This document shows positions 685 through 46,219 of a DNA stretch of 64,000 nucleotides, piece by piece (the stretch's first letter is position 1; each line of letters starts with the position of its first letter). This DNA is from an uncultured Pseudomonadales bacterium (GTDB lineage Bacteria > Patescibacteriota > Microgenomatia > UBA1400 > PJMF01), in the NCBI GenBank assembly GCA_964521215.1, contig CAZFRD010000003.1, forward strand, positions 425 through 64,424, in the 5' to 3' direction. A program made the translations under genes and the position numbers. Below the pieces are notes generated by a model that was not told the DNA's origin, did no database searches, and was given only the letters and a program-made list of their open reading frames with translations.

Positions 685-1617
685 ATGCCACGATTTCCAG
701 ATAGAGCTGAATCACCTGAAAACAATCCCCCAAGAGAGTTTGAAGTCAATGAGGTTAGATTTAGAGAATACATTGAAGAAATCCTAAGAGAAGTAATGCC
801 TGGCTATATACTTCCCCTTAGAGGCAAAAAACCAGCTCAACCCGATCATCTTACTTACTCAAATCCCTACGTCGTAATTAACCAATGGGTTGGATTAAGA
901 GGTTTTGACACCAAACCTCCCAAAGGCTTGTTCGTAGATGGCTTAGCTATTTGGGACTGTATTAATGCAATAAAAACGAATGAGCTTACTGAAGATGTCC
1001 GACTCATAGCAGCAATCATGGCTTTAAATGACAAATTAACCTTACAATACCTTGAACTTGAAGAGGCTCATACAAACCCAATACGGCTTAAAGCTGCGAA
1101 ACAACAACTGCTTAGAAGTTGCTACTTGCTAGAAAAATTACTTACCCCAGATGGTCAAAAGAGTGTTGACCAATTCTTCTCTTCTAATAATAGAATAAGT
1201 CCAACGCTAACGTTTCAAGAATTGGGACTTTTCTTTGAGCTTCACCTTGTTGATTTAACAACTCCGGAAAATATTTATTTAGAAGCTCCCATTGATTTTC
1301 CATCTCCTTCTATAAAAAGGGATGGACCTAACCCCTCAAGCCTTGAGTATTTTACCAATGAATTTGACCAGAATTTTTTTAATCTAATGATAAAAATACT
1401 CAAACATCTTTTGTTTTCATTCCTGTTACCGGGAAATATCAGGTTAACTGATGTAGAAATTCAAGATTTGTGTAAAACTATGCTTAGTCATCTTGACCAA
1501 GAGACACAATTCCTTATATCAAATATAATCGTTAGGGTAGTCTCAAACCCTCAACTTACTACAATCTTTGCTCCTGGGTCAATTAAAGTAGTTGCCGCAG
1601 AAACATTTAGATCCTAA
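685..1617 (+). CDS. hypothetical protein
   Basis: 310-aa ORF with no recognisable family, in the same AT-rich block as the upstream ORF. Confidence 0.4.
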   Translation: MPRFPDRAESPENNPPREFEVNEVRFREYIEEILREVMPGYILPLRGKKPAQPDHLTYSNPYVVINQWVGLRGFDTKPPKGLFVDGLAIWDCINAIKTNELTEDVRLIAAIMALNDKLTLQYLELEEAHTNPIRLKAAKQQLLRSCYLLEKLLTPDGQKSVDQFFSSNNRISPTLTFQELGLFFELHLVDLTTPENIYLEAPIDFPSPSIKRDGPNPSSLEYFTNEFDQNFFNLMIKILKHLLFSFLLPGNIRLTDVEIQDLCKTMLSHLDQETQFLISNIIVRVVSNPQLTTIFAPGSIKVVAAETFRS

Positions 1618-1618
1618 T

Positions 1619-2602
1619 CTATACGACCTTTAAACAATTATTCTCCGTTTTTTTCCACCACGTCATTTGTCTTTTTGCATACTGGAATTCGTGAAGGGCC
1701 CAAAGTTGTTGACAGTTTTCTGCAGAAATTTCTCCATTTAGATAACTGCGAATTTCTGGCACGCCAAGCGTTGTTAGTACTGGGGCTGATGCTGGTAATT
1801 TAAGTTTGAGTAGATTTTTTACCTCTTGTATTGCGCCGCTGGCAAACCGTTTTTCTACTCGTTGTTTAATTCGCTTTTCTATTAGCTCCAGCGGCGCTGT
1901 GACTAATTCCACGTGATTATCAACTTGGCTCCACAGCATCGGCGAATTGGTTGATTTAGTCAGTGAGCCACTTCCATGTTTTTTTTGCCAAGTTGCCACC
2001 TCAATAGCACGAAGCAACCTTCGAGAATTCTCTCTGTCCGAATCATTCATCTGCTCCAACCGAGCTGAATCGATCTCTGCTAACCATCGTTGTAAATCCG
2101 CTACCGACATGTTTTCCGCCTTGCGTCTCATAGTTAAGTCTTGAGGAATTTGGGGTGTTACGTCATCAGAAAATAAATGTTTGTGATACAGCCCTGTGCC
2201 TCCTACCAGCATTGGTTGACGATTATTCGACCAGCTCCACTGCATAATTTCTCTTGCAAAGTTGACAAAATGAGCGAGAGACCACTCTGCAGTTGGATCG
2301 ATCATCGAAATTCCAAAGATTCGAATAGAGCCGTCTATATTTGTGAAGTAGTTAGGGTTGCTCTGAGGGGTGTCACACTGAGCATGTCGAAGTGTGACAA
2401 CCTCAAACCCCTCCGGCACATCCGCACCCGTCAAAATCTCCAATCCCTTATACACTTGCCTGGAGTCGGCACTGATCACATCCACCCCCGCCACTTTTTT
2501 CTCTCTCACCAATTGGCCAGCAATCGCCAAAGCTCTATCCGTCTTACCACAGGCGGTGGGACCAACAACAGAAATGCAGTGATTCGCTTGATCAATTTTC
2601 AT
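1619..2602 (-). CDS. miaA: tRNA dimethylallyltransferase
   Basis: N-terminal P-loop VVGPTACGKT and overall MiaA-like sequence. Overlaps the downstream NUDIX gene by 4 nt. Contains an in-frame palindromic repeat copy (see the repeat feature at 2367..2404). Confidence 0.85.
   Translation of the reverse strand: MKIDQANHCISVVGPTACGKTDRALAIAGQLVREKKVAGVDVISADSRQVYKGLEILTGADVPEGFEVVTLRHAQCDTPQSNPNYFTNIDGSIRIFGISMIDPTAEWSLAHFVNFAREIMQWSWSNNRQPMLVGGTGLYHKHLFSDDVTPQIPQDLTMRRKAENMSVADLQRWLAEIDSARLEQMNDSDRENSRRLLRAIEVATWQKKHGSGSLTKSTNSPMLWSQVDNHVELVTAPLELIEKRIKQRVEKRFASGAIQEVKNLLKLKLPASAPVLTTLGVPEIRSYLNGEISAENCQQLWALHEFQYAKRQMTWWKKTENNCLKVV
2367..2404. repeat. palindromic repeat unit, in-frame inside miaA
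   Basis: Sequence ggggtGTCACACTGAGCATGTCGAAGTGTGACaacctc. Perfect 8-bp inverted repeat GTCACACT/AGTGTGAC around an 11-nt loop. Same family as the units at 4681-4810 and 54226-54474. Confidence 0.7.
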
Positions 2603-3015
2603 ATCTCAACCACCTGGAATGCCTTTTTTTTCGAGAGCAACATGTCCAAACCAGCTTTGTGTCCCAGTAAAATATCCTCAGGCAAATTTTCGAGTGAAAA
2701 CCATACCCAATTTTCAGACTTTTCAGGTTCAAGATTAGTAATCTGGCCTTTCCACTCAGTACATACAAACACAAACTGCAAGAAAAAGTGGGTTTTTTGC
2801 CACTCTTTAACCAAACCTAAGAATTGAAATTGTACCGGCACCACCCCAACTTCCTCTAAAAGTTCTCGAGTCATACAGTGTTCTAGTATTTCTTGTTCGT
2901 CAACATGTCCTCCGGGTAATCCGTACAGTCCTTCACCGTAGGCATGCTTGCGTTTGGCTAATAATACTTTGTTATCTTTTAGCAATATTACTGGGACTCC
3001 AAGATTTTTTATCAT
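2599..3015 (-). CDS. NUDIX hydrolase
   Basis: Nudix box GGHVDEQEILEHCMTRELLEEVGV (GX5EX7REUXEEXGU) in a 138-aa protein. Confidence 0.8.
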   Translation of the reverse strand: MIKNLGVPVILLKDNKVLLAKRKHAYGEGLYGLPGGHVDEQEILEHCMTRELLEEVGVVPVQFQFLGLVKEWQKTHFFLQFVFVCTEWKGQITNLEPEKSENWVWFSLENLPEDILLGHKAGLDMLLSKKKAFQVVEI

Positions 3016-3102
3016 GCCTGATATTATAATGCGAAATAAAACACTAATATACTCAAGCGCCTTCGAATGTGTTAGTTCTTTGTTATGTTATGATAGCTTT
3101 AT

Positions 3103-3495
3103 ATGGCCAAAACACCAGAAATAGTTCAACCACTTCAACTTCCCGATGAATTTCTCAAAGAATTTAAAACATTCGCATCAGAAATTCGTAATAATCTAAC
3201 TCATTTAATTGTTACGCTAGCTGATGTAGAAAGCTACCAACTACCAGTTGATGCAAAAGACAAAATATTGCCATCAAGTATCGAAGCAGACAAGAAAAAT
3301 CTAGAGCAACTTGCAGCTCTTGTCATTAATCTTGCGAAACAGCAACTCGATAATAACTACGCTGTTGAAATGGGCGAGTTGCTTAAAGAATTCATCAAAA
3401 CACAGGGACTTATGACAAATCAAGAAGCCGAACTAATTTTACTGTACTATCACGAGATAGCGGGGTTAAATGCTCTATTTAAAAATCAAGAATAA
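3103..3495 (+). CDS. hypothetical protein
   Basis: 130-aa ORF with no motif recognised. Confidence 0.4.
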   Translation: MAKTPEIVQPLQLPDEFLKEFKTFASEIRNNLTHLIVTLADVESYQLPVDAKDKILPSSIEADKKNLEQLAALVINLAKQQLDNNYAVEMGELLKEFIKTQGLMTNQEAELILLYYHEIAGLNALFKNQE

Positions 3496-26835: not shown

Positions 26836-27840
26836 TTAATCTTCGCATTGCAGTAATCCCATCGCTACAGCAAAACTGGGAGGATTGGAAGCATTTTCTA
26901 CAGTTTTGGCGGCACCAAAGGGAGAGGAGACCAAAACCTCGGTGCCCAATTCGGCACTCACTAAGGCTGCAAAGTTGCGCAAAGATGCCACTCCACCAGA
27001 AAGGATAATGCGCTGAACAGATGCCCCCGTATGTTCATTAGCATAGTACTGCATGGCGATTCTCATTTCTCTCAACCATTCTCTGGCTTGGGGCAATAAG
27101 ATTTCCCGGACCTTGCCCTCAAACTGTGATTCATCCAAACCATAAGCCCGCACATACTGTTCTGTCTGACCTGCCTCCAAATTGAGAGTCGTTTGCAACA
27201 CTCTGGTAAGCAATAAACCGCCACCCATATGGGAAACCACAAAATTCAGACGCCCCGCAGTGACAACTTGCAAAATTAATTCGCTCGCTCCCAAGTGAGC
27301 GATTAAAGTCACGGGGTCCGATTCCGCGACACCAATATTGCGGTAAATAGAAACTGCCTGAGTTTCCACCAAGGTTGGTTCCACGCCAATATTTTGGAAT
27401 AAAGAAATATATCGCTCGACTACTTGCTTGCGCACACCCACCAAAAGTACCTGCATCGTCGTATCTTGTTTGTTCTGAGGTCGAGCGATGACTTGGTATT
27501 GCAACGACAGCTCTTCTTTGGGAATAGGAATATGTCGTTCGGCCTGCCATTGAATTGCCGAGGCCAGTTCCGAATCGGAGAGTGGGGGGATAGAAATAAC
27601 TTTGGTCGCCACCACCGATTCTGGCAAGGAAAGCCGCAGCTGAGCTTTGGGCAAGGCATAATCTTGCCAAAGGGTAGTCATCATCTGGCGCATTTGCTCC
27701 ACTTGCGCATCATCAGCGGGAGCTGCCAAACCCGTGGGATTGAGCACTTCAAAAGCCTTATCCACCTTGGCAGATTTACCAGGCTTACCAATCAAAACTT
27801 TGATACTGTATGATCCAAGATCAAGAGCGAGTGTGGGCAT
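26836..27840 (-). CDS. pilM: type IV pilus assembly protein PilM (actin-like ATPase)
   Basis: LALDLGSYSIKVLIG ASKHA-fold start. 334-aa protein. Confidence 0.8.
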   Translation of the reverse strand: MPTLALDLGSYSIKVLIGKPGKSAKVDKAFEVLNPTGLAAPADDAQVEQMRQMMTTLWQDYALPKAQLRLSLPESVVATKVISIPPLSDSELASAIQWQAERHIPIPKEELSLQYQVIARPQNKQDTTMQVLLVGVRKQVVERYISLFQNIGVEPTLVETQAVSIYRNIGVAESDPVTLIAHLGASELILQVVTAGRLNFVVSHMGGGLLLTRVLQTTLNLEAGQTEQYVRAYGLDESQFEGKVREILLPQAREWLREMRIAMQYYANEHTGASVQRIILSGGVASLRNFAALVSAELGTEVLVSSPFGAAKTVENASNPPSFAVAMGLLQCED

Positions 27841-28715: not shown

Positions 28716-29285
28716 TTAAGCAGTGTATTCTTCGTTTTCTTCCATTTCGCGCTCAATCAAACGCCTCAGGTAGACCGATCGAGGAATTTTCTTTTCCTTG
28801 GCTACCCAATCCAAATAGGTGCTGATGGTAGGCGTAATGAAGAAGTTGAAGCGTACATCACTGGTTTCTTGAGCGTATTCCAAGGCTAGAGTGAGCATTT
28901 CTTCCAGAGTAGAGTCGTCGTAGGTAAGCAGTTGGAGTCGATCAGAGTGCAAACCTTTAAGAGCGTGGGGGAGACCAGCGGCTTCTTTGCGGGTGAGGAT
29001 GATGACGGGTTTGCTCATGTTGAGGGCGGAGGCAACTTCAAAACCAATGCTGACGTCTGGCTGAGAGACTTCGTAGATGATGACGTCGGCTTTTTTGATC
29101 CAGTTGAAAAGTTTTTTGGCGTAGAGTTCGGCTTCAGCGGAGGATTCAGTAACGATCTCCGATGGGTTGCGCTCAATGGCGTGGCGGGTTAGTAAGTCGT
29201 GACCGAGCTTGTCGATAACGGAGATAACTCTCTCAAAGTCAGACTTATTTCCATTAATAATGGGTGCCATAAAATGTATTTTCAT
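28716..29285 (-). CDS. nucleoside 2-deoxyribosyltransferase-like domain fused to C-terminal ribbon-helix-helix (CopG/Arc-like) tail
   Basis: IIYEVSQPDVSIGFEVASALNMSKPVIIL resembles DPGTAFEIGYAxALGKPVI of the Nuc_deoxyrib_tr family. The C-terminal RFNFFITPTISTYLDWVAKEKKIPRSVYLRRLIEREME has a beta-alpha-alpha RHH pattern. Confidence 0.5.
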   Translation of the reverse strand: MKIHFMAPIINGNKSDFERVISVIDKLGHDLLTRHAIERNPSEIVTESSAEAELYAKKLFNWIKKADVIIYEVSQPDVSIGFEVASALNMSKPVIILTRKEAAGLPHALKGLHSDRLQLLTYDDSTLEEMLTLALEYAQETSDVRFNFFITPTISTYLDWVAKEKKIPRSVYLRRLIEREMEENEEYTA

Positions 29286-29357
29286 TTTTTCTCCTCCGTT
29301 TACAAATACCTATTATATACTTACACTGCAAGTTATTAAAAAATATATCAAATACGT

Positions 29358-30383
29358 ATGATTAATTTATCATTTGGTTTCATCGGCTGTGGGGGGTGGG
29401 CGAGGAAGAAATACCTGCCTTACCTGGAAAAACACCCAGAGGTGACGGTGGCGGCTTTTTGCGAGTTGGTGTTGCCCAAAGAAAAAACTGAAATTTCTGA
29501 ACTTTTCCCCGAAGCCAAATATTACGAAACCGCCACCGAAATGCTGGCCAGTGAAAAATTAGCTGGTGTCGTCGTCACGCTCCCACACAGCCTGCACTTA
29601 CCTAGAATCCTTCAGGCTTTAGAGCAAGGCTTACCAGTTTTTACCGACAAACCTGCCGGCGTCACCGCCGATGAAATCCGACAAATTGTCGCCGCCGAAG
29701 CAAAATCAGGCAAAAGAGTCACTATTGGCTCGCAGAGGCGAGCCTTACCAGGTTATACCGAAATTAAACAACGACTAGCCCAAAGTGGCGAACAACCACG
29801 CTGGGCCACCGGCACCTTTCACTTTAGCTCCTACCCCGGTTGGCAAAACACCTGGAGAAACAACCCCCAACTAGCCGGTAATCCGCAAACCAAGCAGGGA
29901 GTCTTGCTCGATACCGGCTACCACCTAATCGACAGCTTGCTCTATATCTTGAACTTCCCCAAACCACTCCGCGTCTTTGCGCAGGCCAATTACCGCGACT
30001 ACAACGTAGAAGCCGATGTAGCGCTCACCATCCAGTTTGACCACGAACTCACCATGCAACTAAATGTTTCGCGCGATGTGCCACCCCAATATGAAAAAGA
30101 GGGCATCGCGCTCTTAACCGACAGGCAGTACCTGTCATTCAACCTCAATTCCGTCAATGGCGTCAAAAAAGCCACTTTAGTGATTAGTGACCAAGACTCC
30201 TCAGCCCAAATCCTCCACTATCCCATCACCGCCATCGCCCATCATCCATTAGCTTCGTTCTTGGATTATGTAGCGGGTAAACCTTATGAAGAAACTTGGT
30301 CTGTCGCCTCTAGTTTGCTGACGCTAGAAATTATTGATGCCGCTTACCAATCAATTCAAACTCAAGCTGTAGTTCACTTATAA
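29358..30383 (+). CDS. Gfo/Idh/MocA family NAD(P)-dependent oxidoreductase
   Basis: N-terminal Rossmann motif FGFIGCGGWARKKYLP in a 341-aa protein. Confidence 0.75.
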   Translation: MINLSFGFIGCGGWARKKYLPYLEKHPEVTVAAFCELVLPKEKTEISELFPEAKYYETATEMLASEKLAGVVVTLPHSLHLPRILQALEQGLPVFTDKPAGVTADEIRQIVAAEAKSGKRVTIGSQRRALPGYTEIKQRLAQSGEQPRWATGTFHFSSYPGWQNTWRNNPQLAGNPQTKQGVLLDTGYHLIDSLLYILNFPKPLRVFAQANYRDYNVEADVALTIQFDHELTMQLNVSRDVPPQYEKEGIALLTDRQYLSFNLNSVNGVKKATLVISDQDSSAQILHYPITAIAHHPLASFLDYVAGKPYEETWSVASSLLTLEIIDAAYQSIQTQAVVHL

Positions 30384-30401
30384 CTTTGTCATGCAGAATT
30401 T

Positions 30402-31154
30402 ATGCCAAATTTAAACTCGGTCGCCGTAATTACAGGTGGAAGTAGTGGGATGGGACTCGCCACTGCCAGAAAATTAGCCCAAGAAGGTTGCCAGACGCTA
30501 TTTTTACTAGCAAGAACTGAGAACAAGTTGGACCAAGTAGTTTCTGAGCTAAAACATGATTTTCCCGCACTCAGAGTGAGCGGACTCACAGTAGACGTAA
30601 GCAACTTTGAGCAAGTCAAAGCCACTTTTGCCACCATTGCCCAAACGGAATCGCGGATTGATTATCTTTTGCTGGCTGCTGGTGCGAGTGTGAGCGAGAA
30701 ACTGAGCAAATCAACCGATTCCCAAGCTTTTAACCAAGATTTACAAATTAACTTAGTCGGCACCTACAATTGCCTATTGTGTGCCCAACCCTTGTTGGGG
30801 CAGGGGAGCAGTGTGGTGACGGTGGCCTCGATCCGGGGCCAGCTGCCTAGTCCGACTGGCTTGGGGTATGCCGCCGCCAAAGGCGGCATCCTAGCCTTAA
30901 CCAGATCCACAGCGCTCCAGCTGGCCCCCCAAGGAATTCGTGTCAATTGCATCTCTCCTAGCGCCGTTTTTCCCACCGGAATGTCCCAACACTGGGACGA
31001 AAGCAAGCGCCAACGGATTACTAACGAAATTCCGCTTCAAAGGATTACTAGCCCCGAAGAAATTGCCAATGTGGCTTGGTTTTTACTTTCCCATCAATCA
31101 AGTTGTCTCACTGGTCAAACTATCAACTGTAACGGTGGTGAATACATGAACTAG
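30402..31154 (+). CDS. short-chain dehydrogenase/reductase (SDR, FabG-like)
   Basis: TGGSSGMG cofactor-binding motif and catalytic YAAAK. Confidence 0.85.
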   Translation: MPNLNSVAVITGGSSGMGLATARKLAQEGCQTLFLLARTENKLDQVVSELKHDFPALRVSGLTVDVSNFEQVKATFATIAQTESRIDYLLLAAGASVSEKLSKSTDSQAFNQDLQINLVGTYNCLLCAQPLLGQGSSVVTVASIRGQLPSPTGLGYAAAKGGILALTRSTALQLAPQGIRVNCISPSAVFPTGMSQHWDESKRQRITNEIPLQRITSPEEIANVAWFLLSHQSSCLTGQTINCNGGEYMN

Positions 31155-31186: not shown

Positions 31187-31693
31187 ATGTCACAACCATT
31201 TTTTGCTAAAGTGCATCAACAATTGGGATCGACCAAGACTGGTTGGTTATTTGTGCTGGCTGGCGCAGTGGCTGGCTTATTAGTACTAGGCTTGGTTATT
31301 GCCTACCAGCGCACGACCAAAACTACCCAGCAGTATCCCACCGCCGCCGATGGTCCCAAACTACAAGATTTGACATACTTAGAAGCTCAACCAACTGAGA
31401 GCAATTTTGTTTGGCAGCCTCTCGACCAACCGCCGGTGAATGTGGTGGGTAATTTGCAAAAAAGTCGTAACGTGCCGGTTAAGGCTGCCAACCCTGGTAC
31501 TGCGTTGGTGAATGAAGGTTACCAGATGGTAGAAGTGGCTCAAACGGATATGAAGCCTTATCAGTCCCAAACCGGTTATCAAAAAGAGCGGGATGTTTGT
31601 TTGTTAATTGCTTCGATGGCTAATGGTGAAGCAGATATGTGGGCAGATAATCCCGATTACATGTATGAACTCAAGTGCGGCCGTTTACCCTAA
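31187..31693 (+). CDS. membrane-anchored hypothetical protein
   Basis: One N-terminal TM segment followed by a soluble domain. 168 aa. Confidence 0.4.
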   Translation: MSQPFFAKVHQQLGSTKTGWLFVLAGAVAGLLVLGLVIAYQRTTKTTQQYPTAADGPKLQDLTYLEAQPTESNFVWQPLDQPPVNVVGNLQKSRNVPVKAANPGTALVNEGYQMVEVAQTDMKPYQSQTGYQKERDVCLLIASMANGEADMWADNPDYMYELKCGRLP

Positions 31694-33168: not shown

Positions 33169-36100
33169 GTGTGGAAATATTTTTGGAAATTATTTGTTAT
33201 TGCATCATTATTTTTTGTTCTCGTAGTTTTTAAACCTCTAAATACCGCTGAAGCTTACTGTAATCCAGACCTCTGGCATGATGCAACAAGTTGTCAGTCT
33301 AGTTGCACAAAAACACAATACAACGACTGCGACGTAACCAATACTAGAGTAGTATCATGTACTGGGGGTAGTTGTGCAGATCCGACTGCTACGCCAGGTG
33401 GTAATCCCAATGTTCGCTGTGGCAGTTGTACCTGCCCAGATGGAAGTACTAAAGCAAAGTGGTGTACCCCCGATTGCTCTGCCACTAACGCCTGTTGGTG
33501 TGATCCATGTGGAGGAGGTGGCGGGGGAGGGGGGAATAGTTGCTGTATGTTAGATGAGAATTGTACTGCTAGTAACTCATGTTACAACTGTAGTCCTGGT
33601 AACTGTAGAGGTTTTTGTGACTCCAATAATGAATGTTCGGCAGCGAGCTACGAAGGCGCCTGTACATATCGTTGTATAGCGGATCCCACCTCACCTCCTG
33701 GTTCCACACCCACTCCAACCTTTCCACCGCTTTGTGGCAACCTCAGCGTCGACCCTGGCGAGGCGTGTGATAATTACATTTACAATAGCAATACAGTCCC
33801 TAATGCCTGTCGGCTGAACTGCCAGTGGCCAGTCTGTGGCGATTTTGTAGTAGATAATACAAACGCCACTCACGGGGGGGTCAACGAAGAATGCGATGCC
33901 GGCGCTGGCAACAGCACCACTGGTTACTGTTCCAACAGTTGTTTACAACTACCCGAATATTCAAATTCTTGTAATCTGATAACTATTGGGCCTTATGCTT
34001 ATGATGGCGTGGACTTTACCTACTCGTACCGAGCGCAAAGTAACGCCAATACTCCAGGTAGTTACTCACCATCGCTACAAATGACTCACCTCAGAAACAA
34101 ATTAGGGATAGATCTTACCCCGCCCAATATTATGTATAGCGAAATAATTCCAAGTTGTAGTAATTACTCATGCACTTCCAACCAAACAATGACCATCGAT
34201 GGTGATTACTTGGTAGTGGATGGAGTAGGTCATAGTTTAACAGTAGGTGTCAATGTCTGGTCAACTATTGAGGGTGAGGCACACCAGTGCGAAACAAGCT
34301 GGTATAGCTCCACCTCGCCAGCATGGCCCAACGAAAACTCACTTAATGGCTGTGATAACAACTGCCGAACTACCATACCAATTATTAATAAGGTAGAGGC
34401 TGCCTGTAACAACTTCACTGTTGACGCTAGTACGATCAATGCAAGTAGTAACTTAACCATCACAGGAACAACTACGACTAATTTATCAGTGGGTCAAGTG
34501 GTACTACAGTACCAAATTCTTAAGGAAGATAACTCCACCACCACTTGGGAAGCCGTTCCAGGAGCAGCTTGCACCGCTACTGGCTCAGATTGGACATGTA
34601 CCAATGTTATTCTTCCTGAATTATTAGAAACTGACCAAGAAGTGAGATTTGATTTGATTCCACTAGTTACAGTTGCCTGTTCGAATATTACGCATCATAG
34701 CGATCAAAGTACGACCGACTGCCTAGTAGCGGCTGGTCCAACTACCGCAGTAAGATGTCGATCTTGGGGCTGGGCCGCTGGCTTGCCTCCCAACGACCAT
34801 CCCAACACTTCTTGTAGCAGTAGTTGTTATGTGGCTTTACCCGTCGGTGCTGTGCCTTATACCCCCACACCCACCCCCACAGTTACACTCACCCCCATTC
34901 CAACCAATACTGCCACACCAACGCCCATTGGAGCGCCCACCGCCACGCCCACCCACACACCCACACCCACACCTACGCCCACTTCTTCCGTACCAACGGC
35001 CACACCCACCAATACTCCTGCCGTGGCACCAGCATTCTGGGGTGAATTATTTTACGACTTCAACAACAATGGAGTTTATGAAACTCAATGTGACGTGGGC
35101 CATATCGTCGAAAAAATTGATTATGCCACCTTTGGCTGTACCGGAGCAGGTTGTACCGACTGCTCGCCCAAAGCTGCACTCGCTGCCCTAATTGGACCAC
35201 TCAACCGGTCACTAGAAGGATTTGAATTATTGGTGGAGGGCACCGGTTTCATTTGGCTCCCCAATCCCAAAATCAGACTCGCACCCTACAGTAGTAATCC
35301 GTTTTACTCGTGGAACGTGGCGCAAAATAATTCTTATACCCTGACTTTGACAGATCCTCGTTCCACCGTCCGTAACTGTAGCGTCACTACTGGTAATCCT
35401 CGCAATATCTCGGTGGGCACTTCCAATGTGGGCAATATTAACACCGGTATCATCTGTAGCCCTCCTTCCACACCCACACCAACGCCCACTCCCACAGCCA
35501 CCGTTACACCCACACCCACCGTCACACCCACTTCCACGCCCACACCCACGCCCACGCCTGGTCCCTATTGGCAAATCCAAGGTGGCAATCTCTTTTCTAA
35601 TGGCGATACTACTGTATTATTGCCAGATCTCTCGTCACTCGGCACCTCAATTCATTTAGCCGATAAATATCCAAATTCTGCTCTCAATATTAGCGCTGGT
35701 GCGGCCATTAGCAATGGATTACTATCAATCGGTTCTGGTTCACTTAATGATTTTTCGGCAAATTTTTCGGGTGAAAAAGTTGAAGAAACTAGCAGCTCGA
35801 TCTGTAGTGATTACACTTTTGCCAGTTTTGCGGATAGTTTAGATTTAGCTCATTTAACATCACAAGGGCCTTTATCAGGAACTATGATTGTCCAAGATTT
35901 CGACAATATATATGGTTCAGCTGTCGATCGGGGAGATTACAAAATTTTCTATCGCTCAGATGATCTACGCCTCAATATCGGAGTATTGTGGGAAGTTAAT
36001 GCAGATCCACCAAACAACAACAAACCCACCATCGTAGTGGTTGATGGAGATCTTGAAGTTGCCTCCATCGGAGGTTTGGAACAACTCATTGACCTAAATC

Positions 36101-36471
36101 CAAATACATTTCTTGGCTTTATTGTCTCTGGCGATATCATTTTTGAAAGCTCAGTGGGCAACAACGTTAGTTCTTCAACTATACCTCCAGGAATTCCAGA
36201 CAACGAACTAAGCAATGTAGAGGGCTTATTCTTCTCGACCGGAAAACCAACCGGTGGCGGTAATGTTATCGTCCAATCAGCCACTCTACCCGCAGAGGAT
36301 AAACGCTTCGTGGGTGAGGGCACATTCATTGGCTGTGCTGGTGTAGAGTTACAGCGAGCCCTTCAAATCAATAATAATAAAACTGAGATATTCCGTTTCA
36401 AACCAGACTTACTATTGAACGTACCAACCGACTTAAGAGAGGCACATATATCATGGCAAGAAATCAACTAG
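33169..36471 (+). CDS. 1100-aa cysteine-rich secreted protein with Myxococcus-type Cys-rich repeats, poly-Gly and PT linkers (candidate pilus-associated adhesin)
   Basis: Signal peptide. Two repeats of the form CGxxxVDPGEACD / CGDFVVD...EECDAGAGNS..YCSNSC. A GGGGGGGGNSCC tract. PTPTPT linkers at ~34858-35025 and ~35465-35565. The stop overlaps the start of the pilin gene at 36453. Confidence 0.7.
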   Translation: MWKYFWKLFVIASLFFVLVVFKPLNTAEAYCNPDLWHDATSCQSSCTKTQYNDCDVTNTRVVSCTGGSCADPTATPGGNPNVRCGSCTCPDGSTKAKWCTPDCSATNACWCDPCGGGGGGGGNSCCMLDENCTASNSCYNCSPGNCRGFCDSNNECSAASYEGACTYRCIADPTSPPGSTPTPTFPPLCGNLSVDPGEACDNYIYNSNTVPNACRLNCQWPVCGDFVVDNTNATHGGVNEECDAGAGNSTTGYCSNSCLQLPEYSNSCNLITIGPYAYDGVDFTYSYRAQSNANTPGSYSPSLQMTHLRNKLGIDLTPPNIMYSEIIPSCSNYSCTSNQTMTIDGDYLVVDGVGHSLTVGVNVWSTIEGEAHQCETSWYSSTSPAWPNENSLNGCDNNCRTTIPIINKVEAACNNFTVDASTINASSNLTITGTTTTNLSVGQVVLQYQILKEDNSTTTWEAVPGAACTATGSDWTCTNVILPELLETDQEVRFDLIPLVTVACSNITHHSDQSTTDCLVAAGPTTAVRCRSWGWAAGLPPNDHPNTSCSSSCYVALPVGAVPYTPTPTPTVTLTPIPTNTATPTPIGAPTATPTHTPTPTPTPTSSVPTATPTNTPAVAPAFWGELFYDFNNNGVYETQCDVGHIVEKIDYATFGCTGAGCTDCSPKAALAALIGPLNRSLEGFELLVEGTGFIWLPNPKIRLAPYSSNPFYSWNVAQNNSYTLTLTDPRSTVRNCSVTTGNPRNISVGTSNVGNINTGIICSPPSTPTPTPTPTATVTPTPTVTPTSTPTPTPTPGPYWQIQGGNLFSNGDTTVLLPDLSSLGTSIHLADKYPNSALNISAGAAISNGLLSIGSGSLNDFSANFSGEKVEETSSSICSDYTFASFADSLDLAHLTSQGPLSGTMIVQDFDNIYGSAVDRGDYKIFYRSDDLRLNIGVLWEVNADPPNNNKPTIVVVDGDLEVASIGGLEQLIDLNPNTFLGFIVSGDIIFESSVGNNVSSSTIPPGIPDNELSNVEGLFFSTGKPTGGGNVIVQSATLPAEDKRFVGEGTFIGCAGVELQRALQINNNKTEIFRFKPDLLLNVPTDLREAHISWQEIN

Positions 36472-36965
36472 GCTATTCTTTAGTCGAACTATTGGTGGTG
36501 ACGGCTCTAATGTTACTCTTGCTTTTGGGTGTGTCCACTTTGCTCATCGCCAGTTTGACCAGCGATGCCCGTATCACCATAAGGCAAGAACTGCGAGCAG
36601 AGGGCAACTACGCCCTAGATACCATGAGTTACTTCATCCGCAATGCCAAATCTCTTGAGGACTGTACTTCTGGGGGCATCACTCTCACCGTCAACAACGA
36701 AGATAGACGAGAGAGCCAGTTCTCAGTGGTACTCAATGGGGGCTATAATCAAATCGCCTCGGATTCTGCAGCGGTAGGCTCCTTTCTTGCACGAAGAGCA
36801 TTTCTCACCCAAGCTCCTTACGAAGTGAGCAACTTTATCGTGGACTGCAATGACGACAACGCCCAGCCCTACGTCACCATTAGTTTCACTTTGGAGCGAA
36901 CTGACGTGGAAGGAGAAGCGATCAGCAATGACTTCCGCCACACCGTATTGGTGCGCAATCAATAA
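36453..36965 (+). CDS. prepilin-type minor pilin/pseudopilin
   Basis: MARNQLG|YSLVELLVV class III signal with Glu5. Confidence 0.65.
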   Translation: MARNQLGYSLVELLVVTALMLLLLLGVSTLLIASLTSDARITIRQELRAEGNYALDTMSYFIRNAKSLEDCTSGGITLTVNNEDRRESQFSVVLNGGYNQIASDSAAVGSFLARRAFLTQAPYEVSNFIVDCNDDNAQPYVTISFTLERTDVEGEAISNDFRHTVLVRNQ

Positions 36966-36970
36966 TTGAA

Positions 36971-37432
36971 TTAATATTCCCGTTCGTAATATTCTTGGGT
37001 CAGAACATAAGTTTTTGTTTTGGCATCAACTTCCCACTCAATGGTAATTTTTGCGGTGATTTTTTCTGGAGATCCAGCTGGTGGCTTCGTAATCAATACC
37101 GTAGGAGTAAAATCCATACCCAGCTTATTGATCGTCGCACATGACGAACCTGGCAGTGGTTCAGTAAAAGTAGGAGGATCCGCTGGAAAATAACAATAGT
37201 TGGTAAGATCGTTCAGCCCAGCAAAAAAAGTTGGCCAACTTTCTTGAGCCCGTTTGAGCAAAATATATTCCGAAATTTCCTCAGCCAAACTTGTTGCGCC
37301 TTCTCGGTAGCGGTTGACAGCTTCTCGCTGGATGGAGTAGGTGAGACTGATAGCGATCCCCGTCAACATCACGCCCACTATTACGGTGGCAACCAGGAGC
37401 TCAATTAAGGTATTGCCTCGTTGTTTTTTCAT
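36971..37432 (-). CDS. prepilin-type minor pilin
   Basis: MKKQRG|NTLIELLVATVIVGV. Confidence 0.65.
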   Translation of the reverse strand: MKKQRGNTLIELLVATVIVGVMLTGIAISLTYSIQREAVNRYREGATSLAEEISEYILLKRAQESWPTFFAGLNDLTNYCYFPADPPTFTEPLPGSSCATINKLGMDFTPTVLITKPPAGSPEKITAKITIEWEVDAKTKTYVLTQEYYEREY

Positions 37433-37434
37433 AA

Positions 37435-37989
37435 TTAAGGTTGTTTCGTCACGGCCGAGATCTCGCCGCCCGGGCTAAGAGTAAATTGATAAGTCACGCC
37501 ACCACGACTGACCTCAATATCGGTATCATCATCCACAGTGGCTCCGCCCATGAGCGAGTAGAAGCTGACGGATTTAGATACACTGCCCCACACTCCACCA
37601 ACAACAATTTGCTCACCATCATAAAACACATCTACCGGTACAGTAATTTCATAGGTACTAACAGGAGTTGGTGAATTTGTAGCCGAAAACTTACCCGAGC
37701 CACAGTATCCCACACTTTGAACTTCATCGTCTGAAGAATTAAAAACTAGGGAATAGCCGATTACTTTATCTGGAACTGTACACCCCTCAGCATCCTGAGA
37801 TCTAGCTTTGGCTCTGGTTTGTACAACAAAACGCTGTAATTCGGTCGCCACTTTTTCTGCATCCAATCTTTCTTGGAAACGCAGATAGGTTGCTCCACCA
37901 ACGGTCAGTAAAATCAGACCCACCACCATCGTCGCCATTAGCTCAATCAGGGTGAAACCTTGATGGTTATGAAGCGTGGGTTGTTTCAT
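37435..37989 (-). CDS. prepilin-type minor pilin (FimT/GspH-like size)
   Basis: ..HQG|FTLIELMATMVVGLILL. Confidence 0.7.
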   Translation of the reverse strand: MKQPTLHNHQGFTLIELMATMVVGLILLTVGGATYLRFQERLDAEKVATELQRFVVQTRAKARSQDAEGCTVPDKVIGYSLVFNSSDDEVQSVGYCGSGKFSATNSPTPVSTYEITVPVDVFYDGEQIVVGGVWGSVSKSVSFYSLMGGATVDDDTDIEVSRGGVTYQFTLSPGGEISAVTKQP

Positions 37990-37999
37990 GAAAAATCAA

Positions 38000-38395
38000 T
38001 TAGGGGTTAGTCACGATAAAAGGCGGAGCGTTTTCTAAGGTTGCTTCCAGTTGAAAACCAGTACAGCTAGTACTGCAACCCCCAGGTGAAGGGGTATATG
38101 TATAAGCGGCACCAGTTGACGGGTCGGTAGGAATTGCTGCATCAGACCAATAACCGGTCGTCGACAGTAAGTCGGTATTTTCTGGGTAAACTCCATTATC
38201 TGATCTGTATAGCACCAGCGCCTGTCTGATATTGGTTACATCAGTTCTCCGACGGCTGTTGCGGGCATTTCTAGCGGCATTGGTATAGGTCACCAAACCA
38301 ATAGCAAATAAGATTGACATAATGGTGACCACGGCTAACAGCTCGATTAGGGTAAAACCTGATCTTTTTTTATTTTTTCGGTTAAGTTTTATCAT
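38000..38395 (-). CDS. type IV pilin
   Basis: ..KKRSG|FTLIELLAVVTIMSIL. Confidence 0.75.
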   Translation of the reverse strand: MIKLNRKNKKRSGFTLIELLAVVTIMSILFAIGLVTYTNAARNARNSRRRTDVTNIRQALVLYRSDNGVYPENTDLLSTTGYWSDAAIPTDPSTGAAYTYTPSPGGCSTSCTGFQLEATLENAPPFIVTNP

Positions 38396-38416
38396 TTTGT
38401 TATTTTTTTTAGATTT

Positions 38417-38827
38417 TTAAAATAAGTTGTTCACACAAAAGAAACCACTTCCCCCCATTCCTGGAACACCACCGCACGCAGCATCACAATTTCCATTGTC
38501 ACCCTCAAGGTCTGCGCTAATACAGTAACTCGTTCCACCAAACTGACAAACATAATCATCTCCGCGTGGACCTTCATAAACTCCGTTGAAACCTTGAACA
38601 TAGTCATCCAAATTTGCACAGTCATTTGTAACTGGGTAAGCATTTGGTAACTGATCTGCATAGTACTGCTCAGCTGCACCTTGTAATGCTTTAATCTCCG
38701 AAATCCTCCGAGCATCTCGGCTTCTCTGAAGTGATTTTTGAAAAGCCATCAAACCCATCGTAGATAAAAGCCCAATGATGGCGACCACAATGAGGATTTC
38801 TATCAGGGTAAAGCCGTTTTTTTTCAT
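38417..38827 (-). CDS. type IV pilin (PilA-like)
   Basis: MKKNG|FTLIEILIVVAIIGLL with a C-terminal Cys pair. TTGCAA-18-TATGAT promoter-like element upstream. Confidence 0.8.
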   Translation of the reverse strand: MKKNGFTLIEILIVVAIIGLLSTMGLMAFQKSLQRSRDARRISEIKALQGAAEQYYADQLPNAYPVTNDCANLDDYVQGFNGVYEGPRGDDYVCQFGGTSYCISADLEGDNGNCDAACGGVPGMGGSGFFCVNNLF

Positions 38828-39860: not shown

Positions 39861-40685
39861 CTACACTCCCAGGAGCTGAGTCCAGTACCAAGCCCAAATT
39901 TGGTCACCCCAAAATAATGCCAAAGCACTGCCAAGCAGGAGAAATGGTCCAAAGGGAATGGGTTGTTTGAGTTTGTGTTTGCCCAACATCAAGAGAAGAC
40001 TGCCCACCAAGGCGCCAGAGCAGACCGCGATCATCAAAGCTACCAATACCTGTGGCCAACCGACTAACATGGCTAAGACTGGCGCCAGTTTCACATCGCC
40101 TAACCCCATGCCTTTTTCTTTGGTGATCCAACGCAAAAACCAAAAAAATGCTCCGACACCAATAGCGGCAACTAGCATGGCTAAGAAATCGATCTGCTGC
40201 ATAATGCCTGAGCCCACGAGGACAATGCGGTACAACAAAGTGGCCACAGCCATGATTACGACTGCCCAGTCGGGAATAATAAAATATTTCATATCTGCCA
40301 CAAAGATAACCAGACTGAGAGTGCCAATTAGTAACCAAAACAAGGGCTGGAGTAGGGTAAATGGCTGGTCGACCAGTAGGAAGAAGAAACTCCCAGCCCA
40401 ATACCACCAAACAAAGAGGGCGCCCACCATTACTTCCATCGCTACATGCGAAATCGCAATTTTTTTATGGCATTTGCGACATTTCCCCCTCAGCATCAAG
40501 TAAGAGAGTAGGGGAATGTTGTCATACCATTTGATGATGTAGGAACAGTGGTCACAACGAGAACGACCAGTTTTCCAGTCTTCTTTTTCTTCCACCGTGC
40601 GATAAACCAGCACGTGCAAAAAACTCCCAATACAGACACCAAGAGCAAAAATGATCAAGCTAACGACTATTTGAAAGATTAACAC
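39861..40685 (-). CDS. pilD: prepilin peptidase (A24 family)
   Basis: N-terminal Zn-binding CDHCSY..CRKCHKK. Multi-TM with catalytic Asp-containing loops. Confidence 0.85.
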   Translation of the reverse strand: MLIFQIVVSLIIFALGVCIGSFLHVLVYRTVEEKEDWKTGRSRCDHCSYIIKWYDNIPLLSYLMLRGKCRKCHKKIAISHVAMEVMVGALFVWWYWAGSFFFLLVDQPFTLLQPLFWLLIGTLSLVIFVADMKYFIIPDWAVVIMAVATLLYRIVLVGSGIMQQIDFLAMLVAAIGVGAFFWFLRWITKEKGMGLGDVKLAPVLAMLVGWPQVLVALMIAVCSGALVGSLLLMLGKHKLKQPIPFGPFLLLGSALALFWGDQIWAWYWTQLLGV

Positions 40686-40918: not shown

Positions 40919-41557
40919 TTATGGTAGACAGATCATGTCAACACCTTCTTCACCTGCGGCGTTGACTGCATCATCAGCAACACATACCCCCGCTACACCT
41001 AATAGATCATCTGGTAATGTTCCAGCACATCTCACAGTCGCCTCATTGGCAAAAGCGCTTGACTGTGGTGAAAAACAGACATAAATGTTATCACCGGTGT
41101 CACCTTCATAGTATACATACAAACCCCTTGCCTCCTGAGTGCCAGTGGATCCTCCTCCGGCTTCGTCTACCCTAGTGACATAAGAATCCTTTAATTCTTG
41201 AGTACCAACACACCCTGTGGTTGCTGTAGTTGAAAGCCGTTCAAGAATTGTACAACCAGACACAGTTTCTTCCCATCCAGAATTTACCAATTGCATAGCG
41301 AGAGTTACTCCAACCGTATCATTTGCATCCTCCTGCCATGGGAAAAATCCATTAAATGCATTATATCTTTCGAGAGCTCCAAGTAATTGCTCTGCGTCGC
41401 CACGTTTGGCCGTATCACGGCCACGATTAATTTGTTCGAGTGGGTTGATAGCCGCCAAGACCATTACAGCTAAGATACCTAAGATCGAAATGACGATCAG
41501 TAACTCGATCATTGTGAAACCTCCGCTTTTTAAGCGAGCAAGCAAGGCTTTCTTCAT
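40919..41557 (-). CDS. type IV pilin (candidate major pilin)
   Basis: ..KSGG|FTMIELLIVISILGILA. Strong Shine-Dalgarno aaaAGGAGaa and a TTGACA-16-TATACA promoter upstream. Confidence 0.75.
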   Translation of the reverse strand: MKKALLARLKSGGFTMIELLIVISILGILAVMVLAAINPLEQINRGRDTAKRGDAEQLLGALERYNAFNGFFPWQEDANDTVGVTLAMQLVNSGWEETVSGCTILERLSTTATTGCVGTQELKDSYVTRVDEAGGGSTGTQEARGLYVYYEGDTGDNIYVCFSPQSSAFANEATVRCAGTLPDDLLGVAGVCVADDAVNAAGEEGVDMICLP

Positions 41558-43939: not shown

Positions 43940-46219
43940 TTAAATTTCAGCTACACGCAAGACTTCTTCGATCGTGGTTACTCCATCGAGCACCTTGAGA
44001 TATCCATCTTGCTTCATATACAGCATACCATCTTTGAGACTAACTTTCTCCATATCACTAGCGGCTTTGCGCGCCATAATTAATTTGGAAATTTCTTCCG
44101 AAATTTTCATTACCTCGAAAATTGCGACTCTACCCTTATAATCGGGCTCCGATTCCGGACGCTCTTTTTTGGCGCGCATTAGGACAATATCTTTCTCTGT
44201 TTTCTGGTTTTGCTGTAACCAACGTGTAAAGTTATCACCCAATACTGTTTTAATATTGTCAATCACTGCCGGATCCGGCCGATAGGCTTCTTTGTAATCT
44301 GGATTAATAATACGCACAATCCGCTGGGCCAACACGCAGGTCATTGAGGATGATAATAAAAATGGTTCGGCGCCCATATCCATCAAACGAGGGAGGGCGC
44401 CGGCAGCGGACGAAGTATGCAGAGTAGCAAACACTAAGTGACCAGTCAAAGAAGCCTGCACCGCCAAACCTGCGGTTTCGCTATCCCGAATTTCTCCCAC
44501 CATAATAATGTTGGGATCCTGACGAAGAAATGATCTCAGTCCAGAGGCAAAAGTCAAACCTGCTTGGGGATTAATTTGCACCTGGTTCACACCAGGCATC
44601 TGATATTCAACCGGATCTTCCAAAGTCATAATGTTCACTCTGGGAGTGTTAATCGTGTGCAAAACAGAATATAGAGTGGTGGTTTTGCCTGAGCCCGTCG
44701 GACCGGTGACCAAGATAATGCCGTGAGGCACCTTGATGGCGTCCTGTACATTGCGCAAAGCCAACCCAGATAATCCAATTTCTTCCAGAGTGGGCACATT
44801 GGCATTTTTATTGAGTAAACGCATCACCACCTTTTCTCCATGAATGGTGGGCAAAGTAGAAATACGCAAATCGACTTGCTGATTATTCTCACTGAAATCG
44901 AAACGGCCATCTTGGGGTAACCGGCGCTCATCAATCTTTAATCCAGATAGAATTTTGATTCTTGATACCACCGCTTGGTGGACTGATTTGGGCAAAATTA
45001 ATTTCTCCTGCAAAATGCCATCAATCCGGTAACGGACGCGCGTCCGATTCTCCTGCGGTTCAATATGAATATCGGACGCGCGGGCTTTGAGCGAAAAAGA
45101 CAAAATGGTCTGCACTATTTTGGTAATTGGGGCTTGCCTAATCATGCCACCAGATAAATCACCAAAATCTTGTTGCAGCTGTTTCTGCTGTTGGACTTGC
45201 TTGGTTTGTTCCAACGCTTGAGTCACCTCGGTAGAAAGACTTTGTGAGTATTGTTCTGCGATCAGCCTTTCAATCTCTGAAGAGGAGGCAAAGTGAGCAA
45301 TAACCTTCAAGCCGGTCTTATGTTGTAAAAAATCGATCGCTTGCACATCAAGCGGGTTGCGCATGGCTACAGACAGCGTGTTTTTGTCCTTATTCAAAGT
45401 GAACGGCAACATCCAATAGTTGCGAGCCACTGCCTCTGGAACTTGGGCCAAAGCCTCTGGGTAAACTCCAACTTCGTTCAAATCTACATAAGGTATGTTG
45501 TAGAACTCGGAACGGGCCTTGACCAAATCTTCTTCGCTCACTAATTTATTTTTTTCAATTAGATGTTCAATGTTCAAGCCAGACTGGATATTTTGGGTCA
45601 AAATTTCGTTGGCCTGCTCCGTGCTCAACAACTTGTTTTTCACCAAAACATCGAGTAGTGAGAGTGGAGCAGTCACTTTTGGTTTGGTGGCCGTAGTAGT
45701 AGTTGGCTCCGGTGGTGATGTTGGTTCTGGAACTTGGGCTAGCGGTTCTGGAGCTGGGGCTGGCGTTGGTACCACTGGTTCTGAGGTTGGAGACGATTGG
45801 TCCACGCTATCAGCCAAAGTGGGCAGAGGCACCACGGGTACTTCGCTGGGTAAAATTGACGGAGTAATTGCAGCTTGAGTTGCGGTAATTTCTTCTTCGG
45901 TTGGCGCTTCACCAATAAATTGGATCGGAATTTCTTCTGCATCCGCAGTAATTTGAGTTTCTGGTTGGTTCTGAGTAGTGGCAGAACCTGAATTAATCAC
46001 GGTAGGCTCCTGAGAAGGAATTTGAATTTGACTTAATTCGTCTACCGATTTTGGTCGACTATCACTGACTGAGGCCACAGGTGTTTGTTGCGTGACTGGT
46101 ACACTTACATGGTCGCTAGCTTGATTGGTAACTTGTGGCACCTGACCAGCATTAACTTGAGTCAACATTAATCCTGGAGGAATGATTGAGGATCGATAAG
46201 CATTGGCAGGCTCTGTCAT
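43940..46219 (-). CDS. pilB: type IV pilus assembly ATPase PilB (GspE family) with ~190-aa low-complexity N-terminal extension
   Basis: Walker A GPTGSGKTT and the GspE core. The N-terminal region is rich in P/T/S/Q (PAPAPEPLAQVPEPTSPPEPTTTT). Confidence 0.85.
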   Translation of the reverse strand: MTEPANAYRSSIIPPGLMLTQVNAGQVPQVTNQASDHVSVPVTQQTPVASVSDSRPKSVDELSQIQIPSQEPTVINSGSATTQNQPETQITADAEEIPIQFIGEAPTEEEITATQAAITPSILPSEVPVVPLPTLADSVDQSSPTSEPVVPTPAPAPEPLAQVPEPTSPPEPTTTTATKPKVTAPLSLLDVLVKNKLLSTEQANEILTQNIQSGLNIEHLIEKNKLVSEEDLVKARSEFYNIPYVDLNEVGVYPEALAQVPEAVARNYWMLPFTLNKDKNTLSVAMRNPLDVQAIDFLQHKTGLKVIAHFASSSEIERLIAEQYSQSLSTEVTQALEQTKQVQQQKQLQQDFGDLSGGMIRQAPITKIVQTILSFSLKARASDIHIEPQENRTRVRYRIDGILQEKLILPKSVHQAVVSRIKILSGLKIDERRLPQDGRFDFSENNQQVDLRISTLPTIHGEKVVMRLLNKNANVPTLEEIGLSGLALRNVQDAIKVPHGIILVTGPTGSGKTTTLYSVLHTINTPRVNIMTLEDPVEYQMPGVNQVQINPQAGLTFASGLRSFLRQDPNIIMVGEIRDSETAGLAVQASLTGHLVFATLHTSSAAGALPRLMDMGAEPFLLSSSMTCVLAQRIVRIINPDYKEAYRPDPAVIDNIKTVLGDNFTRWLQQNQKTEKDIVLMRAKKERPESEPDYKGRVAIFEVMKISEEISKLIMARKAASDMEKVSLKDGMLYMKQDGYLKVLDGVTTIEEVLRVAEI

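Follow-up and report, generated by a model that had tools for sequence, protein, structure and literature searches.

A cysteine-rich secreted protein ending in a ComZ-like beta-solenoid and paired with a minor pilin: a candidate pilus-tip head in a Microgenomates-group bacterium

The stretch of DNA analysed here (64,000 nucleotides (nt); hereafter the window) carries at positions 33169..36471 of the forward strand an open reading frame (ORF) that starts with GTG and encodes a cysteine-rich protein of 1100 amino acids (aa), which we call the large protein. NCBI calls the identical 1100-aa product, with no name attached. An earlier note, written by a model from the letters of the window, had proposed that this protein is a pilus-tip adhesin of a cell resembling those of the Candidate Phyla Radiation (CPR). 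The lineage was well judged: the closest genome record is Candidatus Woesebacteria, of the Microgenomates group. How uncultivated CPR bacteria recognise and attach to a host is an open question in which type IV pili are the main suspects, and we know of no tip or adhesin component of CPR pili that has been defined outside Saccharibacteria. We find that the C-terminal domain (CTD) of the large protein defines a large, widespread and undescribed protein family, and it is this family, together with its split arrangement with a dedicated pilin, that is new here. The features of the large gene and of the pilin gene that follows it are, by position in the window:

33169..33252, forward: signal peptide, Sec-type, aa 1-28 (ending in NTAEA, followed by YC; by inspection, with similar leaders in the family)
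33253..33678, forward: N-terminal Cys-rich region, aa 29-170, 24 Cys, including a tract of eight glycines (G8)
within the large protein: short proline/threonine (P/T) linker, aa 171-186
33727..33948, forward: two degenerate DUF4215 or Myxococcus-type cysteine-rich repeats, aa 187-260 (by BLAST; sub-threshold in Pfam)
33949..34833, forward: module A, aa 261-555, 14 Cys
34834..35043, forward: P/T-rich linker 1, aa 556-625
35044..35457, forward: domain B, aa 626-763 (138 aa), 6 Cys
35458..35562, forward: P/T-rich linker 2, aa 764-798
35563..36468, forward: CTD, aa 799-1100, 302 aa, beta-solenoid (from profile and model)
36434..36441, forward: Shine-Dalgarno-like AGAGAGG, 11 nt before the pilin ATG and within the end of the large gene (by inspection)
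36445..36468, forward: conserved tail HISWQEIN at the protein C-terminus; the same DNA in another frame gives the pilin start, MARNQL
36453..36965, forward: partner minor pilin, 170 aa, cleavage site between G and YSLVE, Glu5 present (PF07963 at 1.3e-5)

Much of the layout drawn in the earlier note agrees with this list, namely the leader, the uninterrupted glycine tract (aa 115-122), the two P/T linkers (the short one at aa 171-186 being an addition) and a stop codon that overlaps the start of a prepilin gene at 36453, the overlap with the pilin ATG amounting to 19 nt. Two of its figures need correction. The protein has 54 Cys in total rather than more than 60, and what was taken for a C-terminal domain of about 600 aa consists of domain B, a P/T linker and the much shorter CTD. 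The sole hydrophobic segment of the protein is N-terminal (MWKYFWKLFVIASLFFVLVVFKPLNTAEA, then YC; aa 1-28, by inspection). It looks like a leader of the Sec and signal peptidase I type, with a predicted cleavage between AEA and Y. The large protein matches neither N_methyl (PF07963) nor TIGR02532 and hence lacks the class III leader by which type IV pilins are recognised, whereas the partner encoded downstream has one. We considered whether the large protein could be a pilin with an uncleaved helix and rejected the idea, since its family has leaders of the usual Sec kind, with cleavage sites resembling AxA. A sortase or exosortase signal in the C-terminal tail was likewise rejected: no sorting or wall-binding motif was detected in the large protein, which has no LPXTG and no C-terminal hydrophobic segment.

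The two Myxococcus-type repeats described in the earlier note stand in part. Aligned by BLAST, aa 187-260 match the tandem repeats of DUF4215 and Myxococcus repeat proteins (PF13948, TIGR02232) with E-values from 1e-9 to 1e-15 (P0004-P0027, which carry PF13948), and orthologues have a near-threshold DUF4215 copy at 25 bits. In the large protein itself, both copies of the CGxx...ExCD pattern (aa 189-218 and 223-258) are degenerate. The Pfam DUF4215 model scores them at E=0.85 and 10.4 bits, below the cut-off of 27, and the NCBIfam scan returned no match to the Myxococcus cysteine-rich repeat. Unlike DUF4215 proteins, the large protein thus has two sub-threshold copies, and its remainder is unrelated to them. 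One match to the repeat region, P0011, comes from a eukaryotic transcriptome (EukProt, a TRINITY contig) and also has a carbonic-anhydrase domain; this Cys-rich repeat is therefore widely spread. Apart from the sub-threshold DUF4215 match, Pfam and NCBIfam scans of the whole large protein and of each of its segments gave nothing, and searches of PDB sequences with the large protein, a CTD profile and the partner pilin gave no meaningful match.

The earlier note had suggested structure prediction for the separate domains, and this was informative for the CTD, described below, and much less so for the centre of the protein. A model of aa 187-560 built from 7 sequences was poor, with a predicted local distance difference test score (pLDDT) of 54. 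Within it, two all-beta stretches (264-369 and 397-500) reach pLDDT 70-83 and have generic Ig/fn3/PKD-type matches only, so that module A is, on a low-confidence model, probably two Ig-like beta-sandwiches. The only relative found for domain B lies in P0036. An enzyme fold unrelated to adhesion had been named as a result that would count against the adhesin proposal; domain scans and structure models reveal no enzyme fold or domain in the large protein or in ten relatives.

To delimit the CTD family, we searched a profile made from three sequences against 1.84 billion representative proteins, which retrieved 1076 proteins at E<=1e-3, of which 459 reach E<=1e-10. The same region (aa 799-1100) has no Pfam, NCBIfam or PDB sequence match, and no Pfam model, the ice-binding family included, matches it at E<=10. 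Several properties recur in the family. First, of the 148 listed members checked, nearly all have the CTD at the C-terminus or a few residues from it; their lengths span 137-1586 aa, the shortest being fragments. Second, most members have an ordinary Sec-type leader, often with a Cys within a few residues after it. Third, the N-terminal parts are variable and mostly Cys-rich (median 5% Cys), and a domain scan of ten diverse members found in them only fn3, CarboxypepD_reg (Ig-like) and GBS_Bsp-like modules. The CTD consensus reads PWWQxxGG ... FVGxGTFVGW ... FRPDF ... (I/V)WQE(V/T)N. Family members were recovered from many different metagenomes. The source names that we saw for them are all 'hypothetical protein', the organism names on more distant relatives include 'Patescibacteria group bacterium' and 'Candidatus Shapirobacteria', and we found no paper that describes the family.

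AlphaFold2, given an alignment of 36 sequences, folds the CTD into a confident beta-solenoid (pLDDT 87.8; predicted template modelling score 0.89), triangular and of the type found in type 1 ice-binding proteins and in ComZ. The closest folds are ComZ of Thermus thermophilus (PDB 6qvi) and ice-binding proteins, which match equally strongly; the next folds score far lower, with VacA p55 at 7.8 and EtpA, tapirins and bactofilin at about 6-7. A Foldseek search with the CTD model gave no match at E<=1e-3, its top ranks being the same two groups. We regard the predicted ComZ or ice-binding type of solenoid as firm, and a specific kinship to ComZ over ice-binding proteins in general as not firm. The match to ComZ is relevant because the solenoid-bearing pilins ComZ and cyanobacterial PilX have been argued or proposed to sit at the pilus tip. 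The last eight residues of the large protein, HISWQEIN, contain the most conserved motif of the CTD and are modelled at pLDDT <50, unpacked in the monomer, as expected of a partner-binding peptide.

Which genes lie beside CTD genes elsewhere? A metagenome scan with 8 CTD sequences added 80 loci, and for the context count we used 71 non-redundant CTD genes with at least 700 nt of downstream sequence. They fall into four groups:

33 of 71: a same-strand prepilin directly after the CTD gene (-35 to +47 nt)
6 of 71: a tandem second CTD gene next, itself followed by such a pilin
6 of 71: pilins elsewhere within 6 kb
26 of 71: no pilin within the fetched flanks

The count of 33 has no usable base rate for how often any gene precedes a pilin, because pilin genes are enriched in the loci retrieved and some of the listed ORFs are spurious. 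The pilins that follow CTD genes belong to one recognisable family (GFTLIE..., FMTFL and a C-terminal ...F.T.V.LRN), with one divergent exception in L072; the family of the partner pilin in the window is typified by the same GFTLIE...FMTFL...LRN. The pairing also extends to distant members. For P0035, P0043 and P0168, whose CTDs are about 25-30% identical, a same-strand prepilin of 164-182 aa lies immediately downstream and is followed by convergent pilins. The P0035 and P0168 loci, which have enough flank, also contain a protein of about 321 aa, with PilD next to it in the P0035 locus. A fourth distant member that we looked up, P0059, lies on a short contig and has no pilin after its gene. 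The -19 overlap itself, in which WQE(I/V)N plus stop and MARNQL are read from two frames, recurs in the distant loci L032, L046, L067 and L076; the 19 nt of dual-coding sequence (36453-36471 in the window) are thus kept although the CTDs are about 33-38% identical. A conserved terminal N is common to both proteins, in WQEVN of the CTD and in LRN of the pilin.

Two further arrangements were seen around CTD genes. Tandem CTD genes of which only the second is followed by a pilin occur in L010, L011, L038, L040, L041, L048, L049, L050, L059 and L060, an arrangement that points to a choice between heads for a single pilus, or to a heterodimer. At many loci, with or without pilins, a protein of about 190-235 aa with one N-terminal membrane helix is encoded just upstream, its stop overlapping the start of the CTD gene (for example L037 4965-5540, L039 4343-5050, L086 4622-5215, L008 5372-6004 and L032 3476-4121). 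These membrane proteins could be a second partner of the CTD proteins. A single conserved upstream partner was sought and not found: the proteins of about 200 aa split into several BLAST clusters, and a hidden Markov model of one cluster misses the 168-aa ORF of the window.

In the window, the large gene sits inside a complete type IV pilus gene set. As the earlier note had it, four more pilin genes and pilD lie on the opposite strand; the four (36971..38827) are convergent with the large gene and its partner pilin. The genes around the large gene and its partner are:

26836..27840, reverse: PilM
31187-31693, forward: membrane-anchored protein, 168 aa
31788-33125, forward: membrane-anchored protein, 445 aa, with SH3_3 and Big_6-like matches and P/T-rich stretches
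36971-37432, reverse: prepilin, 153 aa
37435-37989, reverse: prepilin, 184 aa
38000-38395, reverse: prepilin, 131 aa
38417-38827, reverse: prepilin, 136 aa
38889..39848, reverse: membrane-anchored protein, 319 aa, with a weak PKD-like C-terminus (PF18911, E=0.0013)
39861-40685, reverse: prepilin peptidase PilD
40919..41557, reverse: prepilin of 212 aa, candidate major pilin, 83% identity in L006
41646..46219, reverse: PilC (T2SSF), a PilT-like ATPase and a PilB-like ATPase with an MshEN domain

Resemblance over the whole large protein is limited to three proteins. P0001 is an identical fragment of it. P0002 (1565 aa) and P0003 (1556 aa) share 42-46% identity with it across the N-terminal half and 39-42% over the final 300 residues, and they have a different domain in place of domain B. 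P0002, P0003, P0029 and P0031 match the N-terminal Cys-rich region (aa 29-170) at 48-65% identity, and module A (from about aa 212-261 to 555) is present twice in the orthologues of 1556-1570 aa. A genome scan found the same large gene in L006, a metagenome-assembled genome of Candidatus Woesebacteria, and in the contig L007 (CAYNWG010000032.1). The latter is labelled uncultured Pseudomonadales, and its gene content matches the Woesebacteria locus L006; because the CPR-type pilus locus is the same, this contig is probably mis-binned or mislabelled. All orthologous loci keep one gene order: the membrane protein of about 170 aa, the SH3_3 protein, the large protein, the overlapping pilin (168-170 aa) and four convergent pilins.

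The earlier note had also advised comparing the variability of the gene among relatives. Expressed as percent identity between the proteins of the window and those of L001, L006 and L007, divergence across the locus is:

PilC: 93%
PilM: 90%
PilD: 85%
212-aa pilin: 83%
partner pilin: 67-69%
other minor pilins: 52-65%
large protein, best segment: 36-46%
upstream 168-aa protein: 35-38%
SH3_3 protein: no match at 1e-5 (BLAST)

The large gene and its two upstream neighbours are hence the fastest-changing genes of the locus, and the large protein also differs in domain content between these genomes, through duplication and replacement. Such fast divergence is expected of exposed proteins that determine an interaction, and relaxed constraint could also produce it.

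We compared the large protein with the known classes that it resembles, and it belongs to none of them: neither to the pilins, including those of the ComZ and PilX type, nor to PilY1/PilC, nor to DUF3494, and it is only a degenerate relative of the DUF4215 repeat proteins. In ComZ, a solenoid separates the last two strands of a pilin fold; ComZ binds PilA2, a neighbouring pilin, and the case has been made that the pilus tip is the only place where it would fit (PMC6561018). The same insertion is present in PilX and HpsA-type pilins of cyanobacteria, which are proposed to form a 'tip plug' that replaces PilY1 (bioRxiv 10.64898/2026.02.12.705559). The likeness to these proteins consists of the triangular ice-binding-type beta-solenoid and the pilin neighbour. 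The differences are in the chain: ComZ and PilX have their own N-terminal pilin helix and hold the solenoid inside their own pilin fold, whereas here it is the last domain of a Sec-exported non-pilin, with about 770 residues before it and an 8-residue tail after it, and no sequence similarity to ComZ or PilX is detectable in the CTD.

In layout, PilY1 offers a parallel. Behind a type I leader it has an N-terminus that varies and a C-terminus that is conserved, the latter pilus-proximal in position, and its gene lies in a minor-pilin cluster (PMC7541494). Leader type, variable N-terminus, conserved C-terminus and gene context are all found in the large protein, and the paralogues with different N-termini are a further likeness (PMC7541494). 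In contrast, PilY1 has a modified beta-propeller as its conserved domain, where the large protein has a beta-solenoid, no PilY1/PilC Pfam model matches the large protein, and the PilY1/PilC tip proteins belong to the type IVa pili of Pseudomonas, Neisseria and Myxococcus, whereas the window comes from a CPR bacterium and not from a proteobacterium. DUF3494 or type 1 ice-binding proteins share the fold of the CTD; their sequence model is unmatched, and the CTD differs from them in its conserved WQEVN tail, in its fixed position at the end of large Cys-rich proteins and in its link to pilin genes. The nearest CPR precedent is provided by PilX1 and PilX2 of Saccharibacteria (Nanosynbacter lyticus TM7x), large proteins of CPR pilus loci without a PilD-type leader that are proposed to be tip adhesins, PilX2 being needed for efficient host binding (PMC11623550). 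Compared by their description, these are pilin-like 'lollipops' with a C-terminal beta-jelly-roll or beta-propeller and no solenoid (PMC11623550). The earlier note had argued from Gram-positive-type type IV pili, in which large non-pilin proteins encoded with minor pilins would typically be tip adhesins; the documented case in Streptococcus sanguinis is a modular pilin and not a non-pilin protein (PMC8179133).

On sequence, structural models and analogy, we propose that the large protein, itself no pilin, forms the head of the tip complex of a type IV pilus and corresponds in function to PilY1, ComZ and cyanobacterial PilX; we put the chances of this at about even. The large protein would be exported by Sec and its leader cleaved, and the downstream pilin would be translated together with it by way of the 19-nt overlap. 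The CTD solenoid, perhaps through its exposed (I/V)WQE(V/T)N tail, might then dock on the minor pilin and the priming complex at the membrane. As the pilus is extended, the solenoid would come to lie at the pilus-proximal end, and the disulfide-rich N-terminal modules, held on P/T linkers, would extend outwards from the tip and there bind their target, presumably on a host cell. Such an arrangement would amount to a 'split ComZ', with the solenoid placed on a separate secreted protein and the pilin encoded by a separate, adjacent gene. Several independent results support the link to the pilus indirectly: the pairing is kept in orthologues and at about 25-30% CTD identity, the fold resembles that of ComZ, and the layout resembles that of PilY1. 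This much of the earlier proposal finds support; location at the tip and adhesion remain suggestions drawn from these likenesses.

Several points weigh against this proposal. The CTD is not exclusively linked to pili, given the 26 genes without a pilin in their flanks. Orthologues, which the earlier note had asked about, do lie beside pilin genes; it is the paralogous members, about a third of the family, that are encoded elsewhere. In some CTD subfamilies the chain continues for a few residues after WQE/WRE, and the motif therefore need not stand at a free C-terminus. Glu5 is retained in the partner pilin, which is accordingly not an obvious terminal subunit of the PilX/GspK type. The poor model of aa 187-560 identified no binding fold, and a host and an epibiotic lifestyle are assumed from the lineage only.

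A broader version of the proposal is possible, and we advance it tentatively, as something we rather doubt. CPR Microgenomates and their relatives may build a split tip, in which the heads are exchangeable, rich in disulfides and drawn from a family of over 1000 representative proteins. The ComZ-like solenoid at the end of each would insert in trans into a single minor pilin dedicated to this purpose, and paralogues from elsewhere in the genome and tandem copies would serve the same pilus as alternative heads. If so, minimal cells would have a modular repertoire for host recognition, comparable to the swapping of phage tail fibres. Should the docking step be correct, the signature PWWQxxGG ... 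FVGxGTFVGW ... WQEVN would find candidate host-recognition proteins in thousands of CPR genomes, and the pilin-inserted domain of ComZ and PilX and the non-pilin tip protein PilY1 would have an example of their convergence. Should it be wrong, the CTD family would still be a major uncharacterised class of CPR surface proteins.

Of the competing explanations, the one that survives best is a general cell-surface protein off the pilus, whose solenoid would fasten ectodomains of variable, Cys-rich sequence to the CPR envelope, be it to the wall, the S-layer or a membrane protein, the adjacency to pilin genes then reflecting co-regulation. The genes without a flanking pilin would be natural under this explanation, as would the absence of a pilin leader, and the membrane protein of about 190-235 aa whose stop overlaps the CTD gene at several loci could be the real partner. 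We nevertheless consider it unlikely. The pilins that follow CTD genes so closely, often with overlapping reading frames, belong to a single family, and the pairing persists where CTD identity has fallen to about 25-30%; no known motif for wall binding or sorting was seen in the large protein; and a pilus tip protein is among the closest folds.

The resemblance to ComZ could be taken in another way. ComZ binds DNA and is needed for transformation of Thermus (PMC6561018), and the large protein might accordingly be a tip-located DNA receptor of a competence pilus, with an accessory N-terminal part and no role in host adhesion. The DNA-binding lysines of ComZ, however, lie between its pilin domain and its solenoid (PMC6561018), an arrangement absent here, the similarity to ice-binding proteins is equally strong, and the fast-evolving, Cys-rich N-terminal region of about 770 aa with its P/T linkers would be left with no role; we think a DNA receptor quite improbable.

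Very improbable, in our view, is a protein that the pilus machine pushes out like a piston, in the manner of type II secretion: the tip of a pseudopilus would recognise the CTD, and the protein would be released to the medium. A model from Myxococcus does liken PilY1 to type II substrates that contact the tip subunit (PMC7541494), and several pilins of the locus weakly match type II secretion system pseudopilin models. Yet the locus encodes a PilT-like retraction ATPase, typical of true pili, and we noticed no secretin among the locus products scanned, in a search that was not exhaustive. CPR cells of this group are moreover generally considered to have no outer membrane, and a Sec-exported protein would therefore need no piston.

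Last, the CTD might itself be a DUF3494-like module that binds ice or glycans and lies next to pilin genes incidentally. We think this the least probable of the explanations, given the lack of any Pfam match, ice-binding family included, at E<=10, the recovery of the family from many different metagenomes and a pairing with one pilin family that it would leave unexplained.

Beyond the large gene and its pilin, we noted three features of the locus. First, the protein of about 320 aa encoded between the minor pilins and pilD keeps this position in L006 (3001-3960), L008 (11931-12896) and L011 (11821-12786). It has an N-terminal membrane helix, is named by no family model and is 32% identical in L008; it may be an unrecognised component of the CPR pilus machinery. 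Second, the PilB-like ATPase (43940-46219, reverse) is long, at 759 aa, with about 240 residues before MshEN that have no Pfam match. Third, 28716-31154, beside the operon, encodes a nucleoside 2-deoxyribosyltransferase-like protein, a GFO/IDH/MocA oxidoreductase and a short-chain dehydrogenase, and the same is seen in L008 at 720-3203. The two sugar-type oxidoreductases might serve in glycosylation of the P/T linkers or of the pilins.

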